Assembly: GCA_963805625.1 (NCBI GenBank)
Contig: CAWDVE010000019.1
Coordinates: 544,001-608,000, forward strand
Direction: 5' to 3'
Origin: an uncultured Candidatus Rokubacteria bacterium
GTDB lineage: Bacteria; Methylomirabilota; Methylomirabilia; Rokubacteriales; DASRDR01
Length of the DNA stretch: 64,000 bases
Shown: positions 3,559-56,026 of the stretch, one piece after another
Layout: each line of letters starts with the position of its first letter
Numbering within the stretch: the first letter of the stretch is position 1
The notes under the pieces: model-generated
Seen by the model: the letters and a program-made list of their open reading frames with translations, nothing else
The model's database searches: none
What the model was told of the DNA's origin: nothing
Translations under genes and position numbers: made by a program

Positions 3559-3843
3559 GTGGCGGGCGCAGCGGGCATCGTGATCGTCGTGGGCCGCGAT
3601 CAGAGGGAGCTCTACGAGTACTTCCGGTGGGGCTTCGGCCAGACGGCCGGCGTGGAGGTCGTCCTCGACCGCCGGCTCGGAGAGCGCCGCGGCCGTCGGA
3701 ACGGTCACGGGCCGCCGGACGACCGCCGAAAGTCCGATCGGCGGCGGGCCGCCGCCACGCGAGCCGAGCTCCTCGCGCGCGGCTTCCTGATCGCCCGGCG
3801 CGATCCCCGCGCCGGGGCACGGGACTGGGGGACGCTCCGATGA
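3559..3843 (+). CDS. Small hypothetical protein with DRR/ERR basic motifs
   Basis: Fills the gap between ybaK and the amidase; IVIVVGRDQRELYEYF...VEVVLDRRLGERR; host-like codon use. Confidence 0.65.
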   Translation: MAGAAGIVIVVGRDQRELYEYFRWGFGQTAGVEVVLDRRLGERRGRRNGHGPPDDRRKSDRRRAAATRAELLARGFLIARRDPRAGARDWGTLR

Positions 3844-3941
3844 GCCCACAGGCCACCACAGACCGAAGGCCGTGCAATCGCCGTTCGATCGACTCCCGCA
3901 GAGCCCCACAGGCGGAAGGCCGTCCAAGGATAGCCCGATGA
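3840..3941 (+). repeat. 102-bp junction repeat, copy A (open 33-codon frame, ATGA overlaps at both ends)
   Basis: 84/102 identical without gaps (hand count) to the reverse complement of 31186-31287; contains two variants of an ACAGGCCGAAGGCCGT hairpin. Confidence 0.9.
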
Positions 3942-5335
3942 GCGACGTCGAGCTCGGGTTCCTCGGAATCGCGGAGCTCGGCCCCCGGCTGGCTGCCCGG
4001 TCGCTCTCGCCCGTCGAGCTCTGCCAGGCGCTGCTCCGGCGCTGTCAGCACCTCGAGCCCACGCTGAACGCGTTCATCACGCTGGACGCCGAGCGCATCC
4101 TGGCCGAGGCGCGCGTCGCCGAGCGAGAGCTCTCGGCCGGTCGCCCCCGGGGTCCGCTCCATGGCGTACCGGTGGCCGTCAAGGATCTCTGCTGGACGCG
4201 AGGCGAGCGCACGACCGGGGGCTCCAAGGTCTTCTCGGGTTTCGTGCCCGAGGAGGACGCGAGCGTCGTGGCCCGGCTCAGGGAAGCCGGCGCGATCGTC
4301 TTCGGAAAGACCAACACGCCCGAGTTCGCGTACGGTCCGCTGAACGCGTATCACTACGGACCGTCCCGGAACCCCTGGGATCCGGCGCGGTTCACCGGCG
4401 GCTCCAGCATGGGCGCGGCGGCAGCCCTGGCCGGTGGCCTGGCTCCGGGTGCGCTCGGGAGCGACACGGGCGGGTCCATCCGCGGTCCCGCACACTGGTC
4501 GGGGGTCACGGGGCTCATGCCGACGTACGGGCGTGTCCCGCTCCGCGGAGTCGTCGCGCTGGCGACGACTCTCGATCACGTGGGTCCGATGACCCGCTCG
4601 GCGCTCGACGCGGCCCTCCTCCTGCAGGTTCTCGCCGGCCACGACCCGCTCGACTCGACATCGGTGGACGTACCCGTTCCGGACTACGCTCGCGAGACCA
4701 CGCGGTCGGTGCGCCGCCTCCGGGTGGGAGTTCCCCGCGGGTACCTCTGGGATCTCGTCGCGCCCGCGATCGGAACCGCGGTCGAGGTGGCGCTCGACGA
4801 GCTCCGGCGGCTCGGACTCTCGACCGAGGACGTGGAGATTCCGGAATGGGAGGCGGCGGCCGACGCGAGCCTCGTCCTCATCCGCTCGGAGGCCGCGACC
4901 GAGTACCGGCGGGTCCTGATGGAGCGTCCCCAGGATTTGATTCCCGAGGTGCGGGAGCGCCTCGAGGCCGGCGTGCGGACGTCGGCGGTCGAGTACATCG
5001 AAGCGCGCCGCGCGGCGGACCGCTGCGCTCACGCCCTCCGCCGGCTCTTCGCCCGGGTCGATCTCCTGGCTCTCCCCGGGCGTGCCCAGACGGCACCCAA
5101 GATGGACCCGAGCGGGCGCCTGCTGGAGCCCCTGTCGCCGCGAAACTACACCGCGCCGCTGAACTATCCGGGCGTGCCGGCTCTAACCGTCCCGTGCGGC
5201 TTCGACGCGGAGGGCCTCCCCATCGGAATCCAGCTGGTCGGAAGCCACTGGGCTGAGAGCACCCTCTTGAACGTGGCGCACGCCTATCAGCAGGCGACCG
5301 ACTGGCACCGGCGCCGGCCGCCGCTCTGCGTGTGA
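3938..5335 (+). CDS. Amidase signature family (GatA-like) amidase
   Basis: GPLHGVPVAVKD, GKTNTPEF, GGSSMG and GSDTGGSIRGPA carry the Lys-Ser-Ser triad; no gatB or gatC nearby. Confidence 0.92.
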   Translation: MSDVELGFLGIAELGPRLAARSLSPVELCQALLRRCQHLEPTLNAFITLDAERILAEARVAERELSAGRPRGPLHGVPVAVKDLCWTRGERTTGGSKVFSGFVPEEDASVVARLREAGAIVFGKTNTPEFAYGPLNAYHYGPSRNPWDPARFTGGSSMGAAAALAGGLAPGALGSDTGGSIRGPAHWSGVTGLMPTYGRVPLRGVVALATTLDHVGPMTRSALDAALLLQVLAGHDPLDSTSVDVPVPDYARETTRSVRRLRVGVPRGYLWDLVAPAIGTAVEVALDELRRLGLSTEDVEIPEWEAAADASLVLIRSEAATEYRRVLMERPQDLIPEVRERLEAGVRTSAVEYIEARRAADRCAHALRRLFARVDLLALPGRAQTAPKMDPSGRLLEPLSPRNYTAPLNYPGVPALTVPCGFDAEGLPIGIQLVGSHWAESTLLNVAHAYQQATDWHRRRPPLCV

Positions 5336-5775: not shown

Positions 5776-7034
5776 GCGCTCGGTCCCTCTTCGTGCGCTT
5801 CCCGCTGGCGGGGGCGGTCGCGCTGGCCGTGAGCGTGGCGCTCGGCGCCGGCTGTGCCGCGTGGCGGGCGCCTGCCGTCATCGAGCCTGCCACGGCCTTG
5901 CGGCCGGTCAGGAACGCGCCCGCCCTCCGGGACGACGCCGATCCCGCCTCGCTCCGCGCGGCGGTCGTGGAGAGCCTCGCGTGGCTCGCGGCCCAGCCCG
6001 GAGACCACGTCTTCGTGGCAGGACCCCGCCGCGTCACGGTGGCGGAGCAGACGCGGGCGCTCCAGGGCCTGCTCGGCGTCCTGGTGGAGGCGTCGGGACC
6101 CGAGCGTCTGGCCGCGTACGTCCGCGAGACGTTCGAGCTGCTCGAGGCCGTGGGCGGACCGGAGGGACGGATGCTCGTGACCGGCTACTACGAGCCGGTG
6201 GTCGAGGCGTCCGAGCGTCCGAGCGCGGAGTACGGAGTGCCGGTTCTCGGACTCCCTGACGATCTGGTCGAGGTCCGCCTCGAGGCGTTCGATCCCCGCT
6301 ATCGCGGAGAGCGGCTATTCGGCCGAGTCGAGGGCCGGCGGCTGGTTCCGTACTGGCGGCGGGCCGACATCGCCGCGGGCCGCCTCGCCGGCCGCGGCCT
6401 GGAGCTCGCATGGGCGCGTGACCCGGTCGACGTGTTCTTCATGGAGATCCAGGGGAGCGGGACGCTTCGCTTTCCCGATGGTCGCGAGCGTCGCGTGGGC
6501 TACGCCGGCGCCAACGGCCGGGCGTACCGCGCCATCGGGCGCCTCCTGATCGACGAGGGACACGTCCCCCGCGACGCCATGTCGATGCAAGCGATTCGCG
6601 AATGGCTCCGTGTTCACCCGGGCGAGCGGCAGCGCGTGCTCCAGCACAACGAGTCCTACATCTTCTTCCGGCCGCTGTCGGGGCCGCCGGAGGGGAGCCT
6701 GGGCCGCCCTCTCACCCCCGGGCGCTCCGTCGCGACCGACGCGCGACTCTTTCCGCCCGGCACCCTGGCCTTCCTCGACACCGAGCAGCCGGAGCGGGCC
6801 CCGGACGGCACGGTCCGCTGGGTACCCCTCGCGCGCTTCGTCCTCAACCAGGACACGGGCGGCGCGCTCCGGGGCGCCGGGCGGGTCGACTTCTTCTGGG
6901 GACGCGGCGAGGCGGCGGCTTTCGCCGCGGGCCTGATGCGGCAGCCCGGCCGGCTCTACTTCCTCGTGCCCAGGGCGGCGGCCGTCGCCACGTCGGGACT
7001 GGTCCGTGAGAACGCAGGGAGCCAGGCGCCCTAG
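5772..7034 (+). CDS. mltA: Lytic murein transglycosylase MltA family lipoprotein (copy 2)
   Basis: Lipobox LGAGC; TGYYEP, FFMEIQGSG, QDTGGALRGAGRVDFFWG. Confidence 0.92.
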   Translation: MSARSLFVRFPLAGAVALAVSVALGAGCAAWRAPAVIEPATALRPVRNAPALRDDADPASLRAAVVESLAWLAAQPGDHVFVAGPRRVTVAEQTRALQGLLGVLVEASGPERLAAYVRETFELLEAVGGPEGRMLVTGYYEPVVEASERPSAEYGVPVLGLPDDLVEVRLEAFDPRYRGERLFGRVEGRRLVPYWRRADIAAGRLAGRGLELAWARDPVDVFFMEIQGSGTLRFPDGRERRVGYAGANGRAYRAIGRLLIDEGHVPRDAMSMQAIREWLRVHPGERQRVLQHNESYIFFRPLSGPPEGSLGRPLTPGRSVATDARLFPPGTLAFLDTEQPERAPDGTVRWVPLARFVLNQDTGGALRGAGRVDFFWGRGEAAAFAAGLMRQPGRLYFLVPRAAAVATSGLVRENAGSQAP

Positions 7035-30109: not shown

Positions 30110-31189
30110 TCAGGCTGGCCCGGGCGACCCGGTGGCGCCGGCGCGAGCGAGGATCTCGGCCACGAGCTCCCGATGCTCGGCGCAGCCGATGACGTCCAGG
30201 TCAGGGCAGGGCCGCGTCCGCTCGACCCACCGCCGGAGAGCCGCCCGGCGCCCGCACGCCGCCTGGGCGGCGTCCGGGGTCAGCGCCCCGCTCGCGAGCG
30301 CTTGGCCCACGGCCGCGACCGCCTCAGCTCGTGTCTCGGGCTCACGGCAGACGAGGGCGAGATCGCCGCCCACGGTGAGGAACCGCGCGGCCGCGATACC
30401 GACGCCCCAGGCGCTCCTGACTGCCGCCATCTCGAGATCGTCGCTCAGGACGAGGCCCCCGAAGTCGAGCTCCCGCCGCAGGAGTCCCGCGACGACGCCG
30501 GTTGACAGCGAGGCGGGCCACTCCGGATCGAGGGCCGGGTACCGCACGTGGGCCACCATGACTGCGGGGCATCCGGCCGCGAGGGCTCGGCGGAACGGCA
30601 GCAGCTCCGTCCGTTCGAGCTCGCCGACCGGGGCGTCCACCTCTGGGAGGGCCACGTGGGAATCGAGGGGCGTCCGCCCATGACCCGGGAAATGCTTGGC
30701 CACTGGTATGAGGCCTTCCGCCAGGGCTGCGCGGGTGAACGCCGTGCCGCAGGCCGCGACCGCCTCGGCGTCCTCCGCGTACGCTCGGTCGCCGATGACG
30801 ACGCTTTCCGGGTCCGTCCGGCAATCGAGGACCGGCGTGAGCCCGGAGTCGAACCCCGCGGCGCGCAGTTCGCGGGCCATCGCTCTGGCCACGCGCCCGG
30901 CGAGCGCGGGCTCGCCCGTCCGGCCGATCGTCGCCGCGGGAGGAAAGCACGTGAATGGCGGCGGGAGGCGATGGACGCGCCCGCCCTCGTGGTCTACGAG
31001 CACGAGCACGTCTGGGCCGAGCTCGCGCGCTGCCGAGGTCAGCGAGAGGACCGCGTCGAGGGTGGGGCAGTTTCGCGCGAAGAGCACGACGCCGCCCAGC
31101 CCAGCTTCGGCGGCCAGGTCGGCGATGGCCTCCGGCAGCGCGGTGCCCTCGAACCCGAGCGCGAGGAGCTCTCCGGCGCCGGTGCTCAT
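30110..31189 (-). CDS. nagZ: Beta-N-acetylhexosaminidase (GH3)
   Basis: DHEGGRVHRL, KHFPGHG...DSH, SDDLEM; downstream of ampG. Confidence 0.92.
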   Translation of the reverse strand: MSTGAGELLALGFEGTALPEAIADLAAEAGLGGVVLFARNCPTLDAVLSLTSAARELGPDVLVLVDHEGGRVHRLPPPFTCFPPAATIGRTGEPALAGRVARAMARELRAAGFDSGLTPVLDCRTDPESVVIGDRAYAEDAEAVAACGTAFTRAALAEGLIPVAKHFPGHGRTPLDSHVALPEVDAPVGELERTELLPFRRALAAGCPAVMVAHVRYPALDPEWPASLSTGVVAGLLRRELDFGGLVLSDDLEMAAVRSAWGVGIAAARFLTVGGDLALVCREPETRAEAVAAVGQALASGALTPDAAQAACGRRAALRRWVERTRPCPDLDVIGCAEHRELVAEILARAGATGSPGPA

Positions 31190-31287
31190 TGGGCTACCTT
31201 TGGACGGCCTTCGGCCGGTGGGGCTCCGCGGGCGTTGATTCGACGGCGATTGGACGGCCATCGGCCTGTGGCGGCCTGCGGGTTCAC
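31186..31287 (-). repeat. 102-bp junction repeat, copy B (GTGA and ATGA overlaps)
   Basis: Ungapped homolog of 3840-3941; an extra hairpin unit lies at about 31302-31322 inside the ampG 3' end. Confidence 0.9.
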
Positions 31288-32558
31288 TGGCCCGCCCTGT
31301 CGGACGGCTTTCGGCCTGTTGGCTCGCCTCGCCCGGCTGTCGGGCTGGGGGGGAGCCAGGATGCGATGAGCGGGACGAGACAGAGGCCGGGGAGCGACGC
31401 GAGAAAGGTGAGCGCGAAGTACGGGCCGTAGCCCCACCGCTCGGCGCCGATGCCGCTCACCGCGCCCGCGAGGCGGCCCGTGAACGAGAAGAGCGAGGAG
31501 AGGAACGCGTACTGGAGCGTGGCTCGCTCTGGATCGCAGACGGCTAGGAAGAATCCGAGGAACGCGGCGGTCCCGAGCCCGCCCGCGAATGAGTCGATCA
31601 TGGACGCCGCGTACAGGGCCGGCCAGGGCAGCTCCCACAGGGCGACCGCAGCGTAGCCGAGGTTCGAGACCGCCTGAGGCACGCCGAGCGCCCACAGGGC
31701 GGTCAGGGTGCCGTAGCGCTGCATGAAGGCGCCACCCGCCAGGGCCCCGGCGATCGAGAGCCCGATGCCGAGAGCCGTCGGGACCAGCCCGATCTCGAAG
31801 AGCGAGCGCCCACGGTCCACCCAGAATGGCTTAACCATCGGGCCGATCGCGAACTCGCCCAGCTTGTAGGTGAGGACGAAGAGGATGAGCGGGACCGCGC
31901 GCCAGGTGCCGATCCAGCCCACGAAGGGGGCGAGCCAGTGCCGGCGCGCCTCGGCGGGGACGTCGACCCGCGGGATCCGTCGGACTGCCAGGCCGAGCCC
32001 GGCGAACACGACCGCGGCAGCTTCGAAGAGAACGCTCCAGGGCAGCCACTCGGCGAGGGTGACCATGCCGCTGCCGATCAGGACCAGCGCCACGCGGTAC
32101 GCGGAGGCGCGGACGCCGTTCGCCGCGCCCTGCTCCTCCTGGTTCACCAGCGCGACGGTGTAGGCGTCGATCGCCATGTCCTGGGTGGCCGCGGCGACCG
32201 TCAGGACGAGGATCAGGACGATGAGGACGACCAGGCCGCGCGTGGCGTCGGTCATGGGGAGAAGGGCGACGACGAGCGCGACCACGAGCATGGCGCCGGT
32301 GACCCAGTCGCGGCGGTCGCCGAAACGCTGGACCAGCGGCGACCAGATGAACTTCAGAGAGAACGGCAGTTCGAGGAGACGGAGCCCGCCGATGGCGCGG
32401 AGCGACGTGCCCTGTCGGCGGAGGTAGACGGGCAGCACCTCCCACAGGACGCTCACCGGACTGCCCTCGATGAAGTAGAGGAGCCCCACGATCCCGAGCT
32501 TGGATCGCGACGCCTCGGGCAGCCGGCTGGCGCCGAGCAGCGTCCACAGAAGGCGCAT
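31284..32558 (-). CDS. ampG: AmpG-family muropeptide MFS permease
   Basis: LPFSLKFIWSPLV, AATQDMAIDAY, YKLGE, ATLQYAFLSSL; adjacent to nagZ. Confidence 0.88.
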   Translation of the reverse strand: MRLLWTLLGASRLPEASRSKLGIVGLLYFIEGSPVSVLWEVLPVYLRRQGTSLRAIGGLRLLELPFSLKFIWSPLVQRFGDRRDWVTGAMLVVALVVALLPMTDATRGLVVLIVLILVLTVAAATQDMAIDAYTVALVNQEEQGAANGVRASAYRVALVLIGSGMVTLAEWLPWSVLFEAAAVVFAGLGLAVRRIPRVDVPAEARRHWLAPFVGWIGTWRAVPLILFVLTYKLGEFAIGPMVKPFWVDRGRSLFEIGLVPTALGIGLSIAGALAGGAFMQRYGTLTALWALGVPQAVSNLGYAAVALWELPWPALYAASMIDSFAGGLGTAAFLGFFLAVCDPERATLQYAFLSSLFSFTGRLAGAVSGIGAERWGYGPYFALTFLASLPGLCLVPLIASWLPPSPTAGRGEPTGRKPSDRAGQ

Positions 32559-32630
32559 CGCGCGCATTGTACCCGAGCCCAGTTCGTGGGCCGCCGTAGA
32601 AGCGCGGGCCCACGCCTGCTCGCGCGGCTG

Positions 32631-38073: not shown

Positions 38074-40416
38074 ATGGGGGCGAAGTACGTCGGAGCCGAG
38101 GTCCGCCGCCGCGAGGACCCGCGCCTCCTGATCGGGCGGGGGTGCTACGTCGACGACCTCCGCCCGTCCGCTTGCCTCCACGCCGCGATCCTCCGGAGTC
38201 CGCACGCCCACGCGCGGATCCGGGGGATCGGCGTCGATCGCGCACGCACCCACCCCGCGGTGATCGGTTGCTTCACGTATGCGGACCTGGTTCCGCCGCT
38301 CCGGCCGCTCCCCCTCGCCGGTGCGCCCCCGCCGTCGCTCCAGGCTCGCGTCGGCTTCCGCCTGAAGACGGCCGCGCAACTCGCGCTCGCCCACGAGAGG
38401 GTCCGCTACGTCGGCGAGCCGGTGGCGGTGATCGTCGCCACCGACCCGTACGCGGCGGAGGACGCGCTCGACCTGATCGAAGTCGACTACGAGCCGCTCC
38501 CGGCCGTCGTCGACGTCGAGACAGGGCTCGCCCCCGACGCGCCCCTCCTCCACCAGGACTGGGGCGACAACGTGGGCGTCGCCTTCAAGGTGCGGATCGG
38601 GGATCCGGAGCGCGCGCTGGCGGACGCGTCGGTGCGCGTGGGCGCCCGGATTCGCGTGCCCCGCTACGCAGGGATGCCGATGGAGCCCCGTGGAATTCTC
38701 GCCGAGCCCGCCGCGCGCGGTGGGGGCCTGACCGTGTGGGCCTCCACCCAGGTGCCGCACTGGCTCCAGCGCACGCTCTGCGAGATGCTCGATCTTCCGG
38801 CGCACAAGCTGCGCGTCGTCGCGCCCGAGGTCGGTGGCGGCTTCGGGACGAAGGCTTCGATCTACCAGGAGGACGTCCTGATCCCCGTGATCGCGACGCG
38901 CCTCGACCGTCCCGTGAAGTGGATCGAGACCCGACGGGAGCATCTTCAGAGCGCGACCCACTCGCGGGAGCAGCTTCACGACGCCGAGCTCGGCGCGACC
39001 CGTGACGGCCTGATCGTGGCGTTTCGGGACCGCTTCCTGCTGGATCTGGGCGCGTATAACCCCTGGGGCATCGTCCAGCCGTACAACACCGTTGGCCACA
39101 TCCTGGGCCCGCACCGGATCAGGAACGCGGCGTTCGACGGCCAAGCCGTCGTGACCAACAAGACGCCCCACGCGCCGTATCGCGGGGCCGGGCGGCCCGA
39201 GGCCGTCTTCGTGATGGACCGTCTGCTCGACATGCTCGCCCGCGAGGTGGGACTCGATCCAGGGGAGCTTCGCCGGCGGAACCTGGTCAGGCCGGACGAG
39301 ATGCCCTACGACGTGGGGATGCTGTACCGCGACGGGAACCCCCTCGTGTACGACGGGGGCGACTTTCCCGACGGGTTAGCCCGGGCGCTCCGGGCGGCCG
39401 ACTACGACGGCCTGCGCGCCGTGCAGGCCGGGCTCCGGGCGCGGGGGATCTATCGGGGCGTGGGCATCTCCTCGTACGTCGAGGGCACCGGGGTCGGACC
39501 GTACGAGGGCGCGACCGTGCGACTCGACGCCTCGGGCAAGGTGCTGGTCGCGACCGGCGCGTGCTCGCAGGGGCAGGGGCACGAGACCGTTTACGCCCAG
39601 ATCGCGGCGGATGTGCTCGGCGTCGGTCTCGAGGACATCACGGTGATCGGCGGCGACACGGACGCGATCCCGTTCGGCATCGGGACGTTCGCGAGCCGCA
39701 GCACGGTCCTCGCGGGGAACGCCGTGGCGGCTTCGGGGGCGACCGTCCGGGCCAAGCTCGTCCGGGCCGCGGCCCGGCTTCTCGAGGCCGCCGAGGCCGA
39801 TCTCGAGGTGGAGGATGGCCGCGTGTTCGTCCGCGGCAGCCCGGGCCGCGCGCTCACCTTCGCGAGCATCGTGCGCGGGAGCCTGCCGACGTTCCAGGCC
39901 CTGGGAGCCGTCGACCCCGACTTCGAGGCGACCACGTACCAGGGTGTGCCCACCGTGACCTACGCGAGCGCGGTCCACGTGGCGGTGGTCGAGGTCGATC
40001 CCGAGACGGGCCGCATGCGCCTCCTCCGCTACGTGGTCGCCCACGACTGCGGCCGCGTGATCAACCCGATGCTCGTGGACGGGCAGATCCACGGCGGGGT
40101 CGCCCAGGGGATCGGCGGTGGCCTCGGCGAGGAGATCGTCTACGACTCGGCGGGGCAGCTGCTCACCGGCTCCCTGATGGACTACGCCGTACCGCGGGCC
40201 GACGAGCTACCGTTCATCGAGACGGTCCACCTCGAGCATCCCTCGCCGCGCAACCGGCTCGAGGTCAAGGGCGTCGGGGAAGGGGGCGCCATCTCACCGC
40301 CGGCGGCCCTCGCCAATGCCATCGAGGACGCCCTGGCGCCGTTCGGCGTGCGCATCACCGAGGGCCCGGTCACCCCGGCCCGGATCGTCGCGCTTCTGAA
40401 CGGGGTCAGACTTTGA
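38074..40416 (+). CDS. Xanthine dehydrogenase family molybdopterin-binding large subunit (CoxL-like)
   Basis: RREDPRLL, VGGGFGTK, PYRGAGRPE, QGQGHET, GQIHGGVAQGIG, KGVGEGG. Confidence 0.93.
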   Translation: MGAKYVGAEVRRREDPRLLIGRGCYVDDLRPSACLHAAILRSPHAHARIRGIGVDRARTHPAVIGCFTYADLVPPLRPLPLAGAPPPSLQARVGFRLKTAAQLALAHERVRYVGEPVAVIVATDPYAAEDALDLIEVDYEPLPAVVDVETGLAPDAPLLHQDWGDNVGVAFKVRIGDPERALADASVRVGARIRVPRYAGMPMEPRGILAEPAARGGGLTVWASTQVPHWLQRTLCEMLDLPAHKLRVVAPEVGGGFGTKASIYQEDVLIPVIATRLDRPVKWIETRREHLQSATHSREQLHDAELGATRDGLIVAFRDRFLLDLGAYNPWGIVQPYNTVGHILGPHRIRNAAFDGQAVVTNKTPHAPYRGAGRPEAVFVMDRLLDMLAREVGLDPGELRRRNLVRPDEMPYDVGMLYRDGNPLVYDGGDFPDGLARALRAADYDGLRAVQAGLRARGIYRGVGISSYVEGTGVGPYEGATVRLDASGKVLVATGACSQGQGHETVYAQIAADVLGVGLEDITVIGGDTDAIPFGIGTFASRSTVLAGNAVAASGATVRAKLVRAAARLLEAAEADLEVEDGRVFVRGSPGRALTFASIVRGSLPTFQALGAVDPDFEATTYQGVPTVTYASAVHVAVVEVDPETGRMRLLRYVVAHDCGRVINPMLVDGQIHGGVAQGIGGGLGEEIVYDSAGQLLTGSLMDYAVPRADELPFIETVHLEHPSPRNRLEVKGVGEGGAISPPAALANAIEDALAPFGVRITEGPVTPARIVALLNGVRL

Positions 40417-40506
40417 CTTCCCGACATTTCCTCTTCCGGAATCAGATCGTGCTTCCGGACCACTCAGCGGAAAAATGTCGGGGAATGAAAGTCTGACCCC
40501 ATTCAG
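40396..40506. repeat. Long imperfect inverted repeat (REP/MITE-like) spanning the stops of two convergent genes
   Basis: GGGGTCAGACTTTGACTTCCCGACATTT versus rev. comp. GGGGTCAGACTTTCATTCCCCGACATTT (25/28), extending outward with CTGAA(C/T). Confidence 0.85.
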
Positions 40507-54700: not shown

Positions 54701-56026
54701 GTGCTCCTGCTTCCCGAGCGCTGCTACGCGGCGGGGGCTGTCCACGACGGCTGGGCCGTCCGTCTCGAGGACGGTCGGATCACTGCCTTGGGGCCGCGGG
54801 CGGCGCTCCCGCCGTACCCGGCCGTCGAGGCCAACGCGCCGGAGGCGGTCTGCCCCCTCCCCGGGCGGCTTCTCCTCCCCGGTGGCGTCAACGCCCACAA
54901 CCATTCATTCCAGTCGCTCCTCCGCGGGCTCGGCGACGATCTCGACTTCATGGGGTGGCGCGACCGCGTTCTCTATCCCTTCTCGCGGCGGCTGGACGCC
55001 CGGGGAATCGAGATCGGGGCGGCCTTCGCCTTCGCCGAGATGCTGCGCCACGGCATCACGACGGTCGTGGACTTCTTCTACGTCCAGGGCGGCGGCAACG
55101 CGAACGCGGAGGCAGCCATCCGGGCGGCGAAGCAGGTCGGGATCCGCCTCGTCCTGGCCCGCGCCTTCTACGACTGGTCCGGGGCGCCGCCGGAGTATCG
55201 CGAGACGGTACCGGAGGCGACCGCGCGCTGCCGGGAGCTGATGGCCCGGTACGCCGGCGATCCGACGGTGAGCGTCCAGCCGGCGCCCCACAGCCTTCAC
55301 GCGGCCTCGCCCGAGATGATCCGCGCCGCGGCGGCGCTCGCGGACGAGGTTCGCGTGCCGTTCCACATCCACGTCGCCGAGTACCGCGCCGAGCGCGAGC
55401 AGATCGAGGCCCGCCACGGAGTCACCCCGGTGCGATACCTCGACCAGCTCGGCGTCCTGGGTCCGCGGCTCATCGGCGTCCATTGCGTGTGGGTCGACGG
55501 CGGCGAGGTGGAGCTCCTGGCCGAGCGGGGCGCCCGTGTCGCCTACTGCCCGTCCTCGAACATGATCCTGGGTGACGGGGTGACCAGGCTGCGGGAGATG
55601 CGCGCCATCGGTGTCCCCGTGGCGCTCGGCACGGATGGCGGCTGCACGAACAACCGGCTGTCCATCTTCGAGGAGATGCGGATGGCCGCTCTTCTCCAGA
55701 AGGTCACGCACCTCGACGGGACCGCCTTCAGCGCCGAGGAGGCATTCTGGCTCGGGACGGCCGGTGGCGGCGAGGTGCTCGGCCTTCCCGTCGGCGAGAT
55801 CGCGCCGGGCCGCTTCGGGGACCTGGTCGCGCTCGATCTCGAGCATCCGTCGCTCCACCCGCCGAACGCGATCATGAAGAACGTCGTCTACGCGCTCTCG
55901 CCCCAGGCGATCACGGACGTGTGGGTGCACGGCCGTCCGGTCGTGCGGCAGGGGCGCATCGCGACCCTCGACGAGGCGGAGCTCCTCGGGGAAGTGCGGG
56001 CCCTCACGCGCGACTGGCGCGTCTGA
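54701..56026 (+). CDS. Metal-dependent amidohydrolase (SsnA/AtzA/MtaD-like deaminase)
   Basis: PGGVNAHNH, APHS, HIHVAE, HCVW, CPSSN, LGTDG. Confidence 0.92.
   Translation: MLLLPERCYAAGAVHDGWAVRLEDGRITALGPRAALPPYPAVEANAPEAVCPLPGRLLLPGGVNAHNHSFQSLLRGLGDDLDFMGWRDRVLYPFSRRLDARGIEIGAAFAFAEMLRHGITTVVDFFYVQGGGNANAEAAIRAAKQVGIRLVLARAFYDWSGAPPEYRETVPEATARCRELMARYAGDPTVSVQPAPHSLHAASPEMIRAAAALADEVRVPFHIHVAEYRAEREQIEARHGVTPVRYLDQLGVLGPRLIGVHCVWVDGGEVELLAERGARVAYCPSSNMILGDGVTRLREMRAIGVPVALGTDGGCTNNRLSIFEEMRMAALLQKVTHLDGTAFSAEEAFWLGTAGGGEVLGLPVGEIAPGRFGDLVALDLEHPSLHPPNAIMKNVVYALSPQAITDVWVHGRPVVRQGRIATLDEAELLGEVRALTRDWRV

Follow-up and report, generated by a model that had tools for sequence, protein, structure and literature searches.

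The closest described counterparts of the repeat reported here are MIRUs, interspersed repetitive units of mycobacteria (Supply et al. 1997, as summarised in the cited parts of PMC12548453 and PMC3184786). MIRUs insert at start codons, which brings an internal ORF into -4 coupling and leaves expression little changed (PMC12548453, cited part). They are 40-100 bp long, occur in 40-50 copies, and are known from empty and filled sites and from tetranucleotide direct repeats (PMC3184786, cited part). Three other types of dispersed element share some of these traits. GTAG/CGTC REPs and RAYT REPtrons combine a short GC-rich hairpin with modular arrays and contact with stop codons (PMC3733652, cited part). 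Non-autonomous elements of the IS605/ISC type have RTGA-type targets, including GT/GA and N/ATGA, carry a small hairpin without terminal inverted repeats, and insert without duplication (PMC4810608, cited part). Pneumococcal BOX is a modular dispersed repeat with a variable number of subunits, some copies of which carry ORFs (PMC3184786, cited part). Finally, termination-reinitiation coupling at ATGA relies on a -4 overlap and an SD in the upstream ORF (PMC6728339, cited part).

We analysed a 64,000-nucleotide stretch of Rokubacteria DNA (the window) and the repeat family to which two sequences within it belong. Like MIRUs as described in these sources, the Rokubacteria repeat is dispersed, exists in tens of copies, lies between co-oriented genes as MIRUs do between co-transcribed ones, inserts at start codons, and contains an ORF with -4 spacing to the gene. 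Short direct repeats at filled versus empty sites and tandem copies are likewise common to both. Unlike MIRUs, the repeat occurs in a different phylum, couples through its tail in all three frames, is built of 10-, 14-, ~21- and ~50-nt modules, and is associated with duplications of 3 to ~30 nt. Its core, moreover, also occurs inside unrelated repeat families. The earlier note mentioned neither MIRUs nor these other occurrences of the core. Among 200 sampled genomes of an actinobacterial class, mycobacteria perhaps not among them, there was one 26-nt match at chance level and no real similarity. In its mode of action the element is MIRU-like; the sampled genomes gave no support for common descent.

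The remaining systems resemble the repeat in fewer respects. It shares with REPs a GC-rich hairpin, modules and stop-codon contact, and has GTAG in its tail and CGTC after its hairpin. Unlike in REPs, however, these tags are not at the 5' foot of a terminal stem, and the repeat is strand-biased with the genes, supplies start codons and flanks no RAYT gene. The likeness to IS605/ISC elements extends to the RTGA-type target, the small hairpin and the lack of terminal inverted repeats, but TGA plus 0-30 nt is repeated in the Rokubacteria element. BOX, compared by description only, is modular with variable subunit number but is not described in the cited part of PMC3184786 as targeting stop/start overlaps. 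Termination-reinitiation is a host mechanism rather than a mobile element, and the repeat rebuilds its -4 overlap and SD.

On these grounds, and on those presented below, we interpret the sequences as a genus-specific, MIRU-like and likely non-autonomous mobile repeat that occupies NTGA overlaps in operons, rebuilds the downstream start and is likely non-polar through a mini-ORF relay. We assign this reading a probability of about 0.72. It is a real repeat family and apparently undescribed: no account of it was found in the open-access literature searched. Its new features are the three-frame coupling tail, the variable-length junction duplications, and a ~21-nt hairpin core that also occurs within unrelated repeats. 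Thus, the MIRU lifestyle of hiding in stop/start overlaps behind a relay mini-ORF arises in a distant phylum with apparently unrelated sequence. To the MIRU reviews, as far as their cited parts go, the family adds dozens of recent filled/empty pairs and numerical evidence that what persists is the coupling and not the peptide. In practice, an inserted element provides a start codon, replaces the ribosome-binding site, lengthens protein ends by extra residues and leads the annotation of start sites astray. The three-frame tail constitutes a natural frame-proof coupling part.

Two copies in the window

Copy 1 occupies 3840-3943 on the plus strand, as delimited from the sequence and from filled and empty relatives. 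It belongs to a double-core subfamily and contains a 33-codon relay mini-ORF at 3840-3941. At its left junction (3837-3845), the ATG of the mini-ORF overlaps the upstream stop, and this 9-nt stretch recurs at 3935-3943. Core module 1 (3857-3873) is a mini-hairpin of the GGCC-GAA-GGCC type with one mismatch; core module 2 lies at 3907-3923. The tail (3926-3943) includes a purine-rich, putatively SD-like stretch, a second-frame TAG at 3931-3933, and an ATG at 3938-3940 overlapped by a TGA at 3939-3941. Upstream is a plus-strand hypothetical gene (3559-3843; 94 aa) without a Pfam match, whose TGA forms the left junction. The gene downstream (3938-5335, plus strand; Pfam Amidase) takes its start codon from the tail of copy 1. 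Paralogous ORFs at 1854-2948 and 5793-7034, which are 70-71% identical over long stretches and which we take to be MltA-like lytic transglycosylases, flank the amidase cluster.

Copy 2 occupies 31184-31287 on the minus strand. Its relay mini-ORF, again of 33 codons, runs from 31287 to 31186; the two cores lie at 31254-31270 and 31204-31220, and the tail at 31184-31200. It separates an ampG-like MFS permease gene (31284-32567, minus strand) from a nagZ-like GH3 gene (30110-31189, minus strand; Pfam Glyco_hydro_3), whose start codon comes from the copy 2 tail.

The earlier note had described this pair from the letters of the window, and its description was borne out. The recounted ungapped identity of 3840-3941(+) and 31186-31287(-) was 84/102, each 102-bp copy contained 33 open codons, and, with the ATG/GTG start set aside, 2 of the 15 changed codons were synonymous. 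Both copies begin with RTGA on the stop of the upstream ORF (3559-3843; 31284-32567) and end with ATGA as the downstream start. The flanking gene pairs are unrelated, and each copy holds the two core modules that the note had described as mini-hairpins. In a protein comparison, the amidase and GH3 starts at the element tails matched proteins in a public collection, and the longer N-terminal variants of these genes had no match there.

Allowing up to 3 mismatches, the 17-nt core was matched 6 times in the window against 0.42 expected, and 5 of the 6 matches were inside the two elements. A third core module, at 31304-31320, lies within the ampG C-terminus. Together with a degenerate tail, it appears to represent an older short copy (31284-31326, minus strand) that now forms the last ~14 ampG codons and whose tail TGA is the present ampG stop. 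Since most relatives with an empty site end ampG earlier, this older copy was likely absorbed into the AmpG protein.

An Illumina contig from a public RNA library, run X1, reproduced 3783-4054, which spans the element and both junctions, without difference at a depth of 2; this is a check of the sequence and not proof of transcription. Based on this exact match, copy 1 is not an assembly artefact. Two further RNA runs (X2 and X3), of which a small share was covered, yielded short pieces only and no evidence of expression.

Dispersal, empty sites and junctions

A BLAST search with both window copies returned 45 loci in the host genome, G000. A profile built from 20 copies was then searched against G000 using the reversed genome as a control. 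About 77 matches were obtained at E<=1, versus 0 in the reversed genome, and the matches at E<=10 merged to 82 loci. The window pair thus belongs to a dispersed family. The downstream gene was on the strand of the element at 72 of the 82 loci, and 63 loci lay between genes on that strand. For 45 genes beside 20 atypical G000 copies, Pfam pointed mainly to metabolism and transport. An IS630-type ORF lay about 1.1 kb from one of these cores, which does not flank it.

Family members follow a common order: a short left end after TGA, a variable number of 10-nt units, a core of 17-21 nt, a variable number of 14-nt units, and the tail. The core carries the GGCC-GAA-GGCC mini-hairpin and the tail ends in GGTAG-N4-RTGAGC. 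The earlier note had taken 102 bp to be a fixed length; the family spans 45-202 nt, and 102 bp is one length variant. The double-core subfamily to which the window copies belong is also present in G003, and the two window copies share a 3-nt deletion.

The core motif was present in 13 of 14 same-genus genomes, and 494 cores were counted in G019, from another genus of the same family. Within the phylum, 16 of 251 genomes held an exact 18-mer, in one case as a single match. Outside its genus, the repeat is nearly absent elsewhere in the phylum. Among the loci listed from a named collection, 74 of 80 were Ca. Rokubacteria/Methylomirabilota records, from both short-read and long-contig assemblies; two named matches outside Rokubacteria were set aside as they look like chance hits in coding DNA. 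The exact core had 0 matches in the viral contigs searched. One tail-less copy in G000 (contig C11, about 55036-55075) is antisense to its neighbours and near a phage prohead protease gene. At one G010 locus (contig C229), core-bearing repeats form an inverted, REPIN-like doublet that is absent at the orthologous G000 site.

For both window junctions there are relatives in which the orthologous site is empty and stop and start overlap in a single NTGA, as the earlier note had anticipated. The ampG/nagZ junction was compared at 13 loci: 7 had a direct RTGA overlap and 2 were filled (G000 and G013). The other 4 comprised one with a TAG four bases before the start and three with short unrecognisable relay ORFs. 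At this junction, G003, G009 and G014 carry independent core-less relay mini-ORFs of 10, 4 and 18 codons, respectively. Similarly, among 14 loci at the hypothetical/amidase junction, 5 had a direct NTGA overlap and 3 were filled, the filled relatives being G013 and G002; at the others, the upstream gene was not intact or the locus was uninformative.

Insertions are highly polymorphic between close genomes. From the relatives, 135 copies were examined, of which 104 mapped to G000: 27 were shared, 65 were single-gap pairs and 12 fell into other classes. Many of the 65 single-gap pairs had weak flank identity and were excluded from the definition of the junctions. The closest genomes, G013 and G010 (flanks 88-98% identical), contained 78 copies. 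Of these, 36 were common to G000, 9 had no ortholog, and 33 corresponded to G000 sites at which the core was absent, which indicates that turnover is fast. Some empty sites could be precise losses between short direct repeats (e.g., locus L021) and not pre-insertion states.

The junctions differ in their base composition. Across 80 sites, the base before the left TGA was G in 40, A in 31, C in 6 and T in 3, and follows the target; the base before the right TGA was G in 73. GC followed the right TGA in 66 of 80 sites and the left TGA in 46 of 80, as compared to 120 of 586 directly coupled junctions. Based on these counts, TGA(GC) is the preferred target and the element brings its own start. The duplicated junction consisted of TGA alone or was longer: 6 nt at L197 and L388, 9 nt in window copy 1, 16 nt at L021, about 25 nt at L397 and 32 nt at L217. 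A fixed 5-6-bp target duplication was rejected. The variable length is probably better explained by strand exchange, or by target-primed synthesis with microhomology, than by a cut of the DDE type. In G003 (contig C3), a full 56-nt copy lies antisense at a gene start, and the coding strand still has a stop/start relay via a TTGA overlap; this antisense insertion suggests targeting at the DNA level.

Frame and proposed relay through the element

In the mechanism that we propose, a DNA-level strand exchange or a target-primed event that recognises the hairpin core would insert the element at TGA(GC). Ribosomes terminating at the upstream TGA would reinitiate on the mini-ORF and be handed on to the downstream gene, so the insertion would likely be non-polar. 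Translation of the mini-ORF is inferred from termination-reinitiation at -4 overlaps. Depending on the frame, a ribosome would stop on the overlapping TGA of the tail, stop at the TAG four bases before the start, or run into the gene. Purifying selection would remove copies in which the relay is broken or the N-terminus of the downstream product lengthened, and modules would afterwards expand and contract by slippage.

The coupling survey covered 195 core groups in seven genomes of the genus (all of G000 and the fetched loci of the others), a few of the G000 matches being chance matches in coding DNA. The frames of flanking genes were assigned with a purpose-made hexamer gene caller. Of 157 groups scored, 115 had the stop of the upstream gene no more than 60 nt from the core. 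These 115 stops were TGA in 111 cases and RTGA in 95; genome-wide, RTGA accounted for 1535 of 5218 (29%). A tail could be recognised in 123 of the 195 groups and not in 72, about a third. Of 113 cases scored, 105 had the tail RTG in the reading frame of the downstream gene.

Collapsing orthologous sites left 80 unique sites with both ends, which are not fully independent as the genomes are related. By TGA-to-TGA length modulo 3, the overlapping TGA closes the frame at 48 sites, 23 sites use the TAG frame and 9 are fused in frame to the gene (binomial 9e-7). An exact -4 overlap ended the element at 41 of the 80 sites. Both window copies have orthologs in G013 that now lie in the TAG frame. Accordingly, the earlier claim that length, frame and junctions are kept stands for the coupled junctions and falls for strict frame, all three frames being used, and for fixed length. 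Its predictions for other copies fared similarly: the frame bias and the link to RTGA were found, and lengths varied. What persists is the coupled end, not the length.

An alternative account is that the element merely supplies its own ribosome-binding site and start. Initiation downstream would then be de novo, and the mini-ORF would be open because the target is a TGA, the master sequence is GC-rich and poor in stops, and two master lengths were successful. This account fits the tails of 123 of 195 copies, which combine an SD-like stretch with RTG, and the presence of some tailed copies at operon starts without an upstream stop. The two master lengths (56 and 80 nt) indeed carry part of the frame bias, which without them was weaker, at 28/23/9 (p=0.02; permutation p=0.03); counted by distinct lengths, the split was 18/18/7. 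Moreover, stop-creating changes were not significantly rarer in the translated frame (5/193 versus 22/426, p=0.2). Against it, the lengths of the left and right parts co-vary so as to keep the frame (permutation p<5e-5). Simulated reinitiation at NTGA overlaps found an unbroken path at 58 of the 60 sites at which both genes could be identified, more than in any of 500 random-frameshift trials (mean 47.1, maximum 54). When only ATG and GTG starts were allowed, the relay was intact at 47 of 60 sites versus a mean of 38.6 and a maximum of 46 under random frameshifts. With shuffled interiors, 33 paths were obtained as compared to the 57 observed at 59 sites. Post-insertion length changes also favoured multiples of 3, which made up 17 of 31 non-zero differences between orthologous filled sites (p=0.011), in windows that take in some flanking coding DNA. 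Finally, the TAG four bases before the start tended to be kept where it is used, in 13 of 23 TAG-frame sites versus 16 of 48 (p=0.08). We therefore consider de novo initiation alone to be unlikely. A mobile repeat, likely non-polar by a mini-ORF ribosome relay as the earlier note had proposed, is supported by the empty sites and the relay-path statistics. Internal stops, moreover, numbered 0 in the frame of the terminal TGA, versus 15 and 16 in the other two frames.

The peptide itself appears unselected, as the earlier note had surmised. Substitutions were even over codon positions (95/88/104 over 915 codons), and only 2 of the 15 changed codons between the window copies were synonymous, where about 27% of random single changes would be. 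Neither mini-ORF peptide was present in the protein collection. A peptide function was rejected on these three counts.

Relay mini-ORFs running from RTGA to RTGA are not confined to this family. In G000, 164 such mini-ORFs, 2-59 codons long, separate co-oriented genes (odds ratio 2.0 versus CTGA controls), and only 17 of them contain a core. Relay spacers may be characteristic of this lineage in general.

The hairpin core and the search for a mobiliser

In G019, the core behaves differently. Its copies there had no strand bias and the junction tail was at control level. At the G019 loci L083-L102, the core was at fixed positions within at least three other repeat families of which core-less twins exist; these hosts include a repeat with GC-rich terminal inverted repeats and a poly-C/poly-G hairpin repeat. 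Such a distribution would be expected if the mobile unit were the ~21-nt hairpin core alone and the element a mosaic of junction duplication and core, the core having been copied through recombination or templated repair into relay spacers already in place or into duplicated junctions. Within the genus, too, cores have joined older relay ORFs at orthologous sites (L185, L394, L191, L181) and are flanked by junction duplications of 25-32 nt (L397, L217), and most of the relay mini-ORFs in G000 are core-less. However, many clean filled/empty pairs gained a whole core plus tail, with the same tail at unrelated sites (L001, L390, L396, L409, L197, L184), and the 3' R is G in 73 of 80 sites whatever the target. 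As a full explanation the core alone is improbable, although it can coexist with a mobile repeat that is relayed at operon junctions.

One more speculative scenario, which we regard as doubtful, extends this idea. The ~21-nt GNA-loop hairpin core would be a minimal mobile unit, moved by an undescribed host or phage enzyme that leaves variable-length duplications, and would invade several repeat families. In the genus, it would have captured a three-frame coupling tail, allowing silent colonisation of essential operons and rewriting gene termini such as the ampG C-terminus. If so, enzymes of this class could also account for the mobility of MIRU-type repeats, for which a mobiliser is missing.

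Candidate enzymes were sought in 4-25 genomes, all metagenome assemblies; linkage to the motif would not be required of an enzyme that acts in trans. The check proposed in the earlier note, for a RAYT/TnpA(REP) gene flanked by the hairpin, was negative: the motif flanked 0 of 15 Y1_Tnp loci in the 25 genomes searched. Y1 genes occurred in 8 of 14 same-genus genomes, and G013 and G019 had no Y1_Tnp match. GIY-YIG frames of 627-711 aa, presumably UvrC, were found once per genome in 5 of 5 genomes without linkage to the motif; a core-bearing repeat near one G019 GIY-YIG locus is expected at ~500 core copies. DUF559 was found in 0 of 5 genomes. Reverse transcriptases occurred in 2 of 5, none of them in G003 or G019, with no convincing motif nearby. 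The 25 IS110 loci had weak partial motif matches only, and the motif was at 0 of 26 DDE_Tnp_1 loci and 0 of the 30 tyrosine recombinase loci fetched from the 59 matches listed. TnpB had no match in 5 genomes, and the RRXRR domain of IscB none in 5, with the control equally silent. As no mobiliser is named for MIRUs in the cited parts of the sources, and none of the enzyme families that we tested was linked to the motif, the repeat family is a tractable lead.

Folding analyses bear on the nature of the core. Whole elements folded no better than shuffles (z -1.04 to +0.61), RNAalifold gave -1.2 kcal/mol with 0 covarying pairs for 26 copies, there were almost no compensatory stem changes among 246 cores, and Rfam contained no match to the element. 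Its only structure was a 4-bp mini-hairpin of the stable C-GAA-G type, the middle base of the loop being among the commonest variants. A structured-RNA coupling element, the other possibility raised in the earlier note, was thus abandoned: a hairpin this short, near-zero covariation and the lack of an Rfam match make the core more likely a DNA recognition signal than an RNA structure.

A repeat of the REP/PATE type, mobilised by a Y1 (HUH) transposase, or a structured RNA selected for a regulatory role at operon junctions is highly improbable: the stable mini-hairpin, the IS605/ISC-like target and the Y1 genes of the genus speak for it, but the motif-free Y1 loci, the genomes without Y1 or TnpB, the duplicated junction bases, the folding results and the polymorphism of the insertions between close genomes all argue against it.

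Membership of the described classes was rejected on similar grounds. The REP/MITE-like assignment of the earlier note did not survive the lack of terminal inverted repeats and of a RAYT gene flanked by the motif. Specifically, a DDE-mobilised MITE was discarded as the element ends are direct repeats and not complementary, only 2 of the 14 sites whose 3' end is non-consensus have the same two bases behind both TGAs, and the DDE_Tnp_1 loci are without the motif. A REP/REPIN with RAYT was discarded given a 4-bp mini-hairpin without a terminal GTAG/CGTC-tagged stem-loop and a strong strand bias in the genus. A non-autonomous IS200/IS605 or ISC element was discarded given the duplications and the failure to find TnpB or, with its silent control, IscB in any of 5 genomes.

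Elsewhere in the window, 40396-40506 contains a pair of 34-bp inverted repeats, 88% complementary and 43 nt apart. By eye, this pair resembles sequence upstream of the Y1/RAYT-like genes of the genus, i.e., a separate family of the REP/TIR type.
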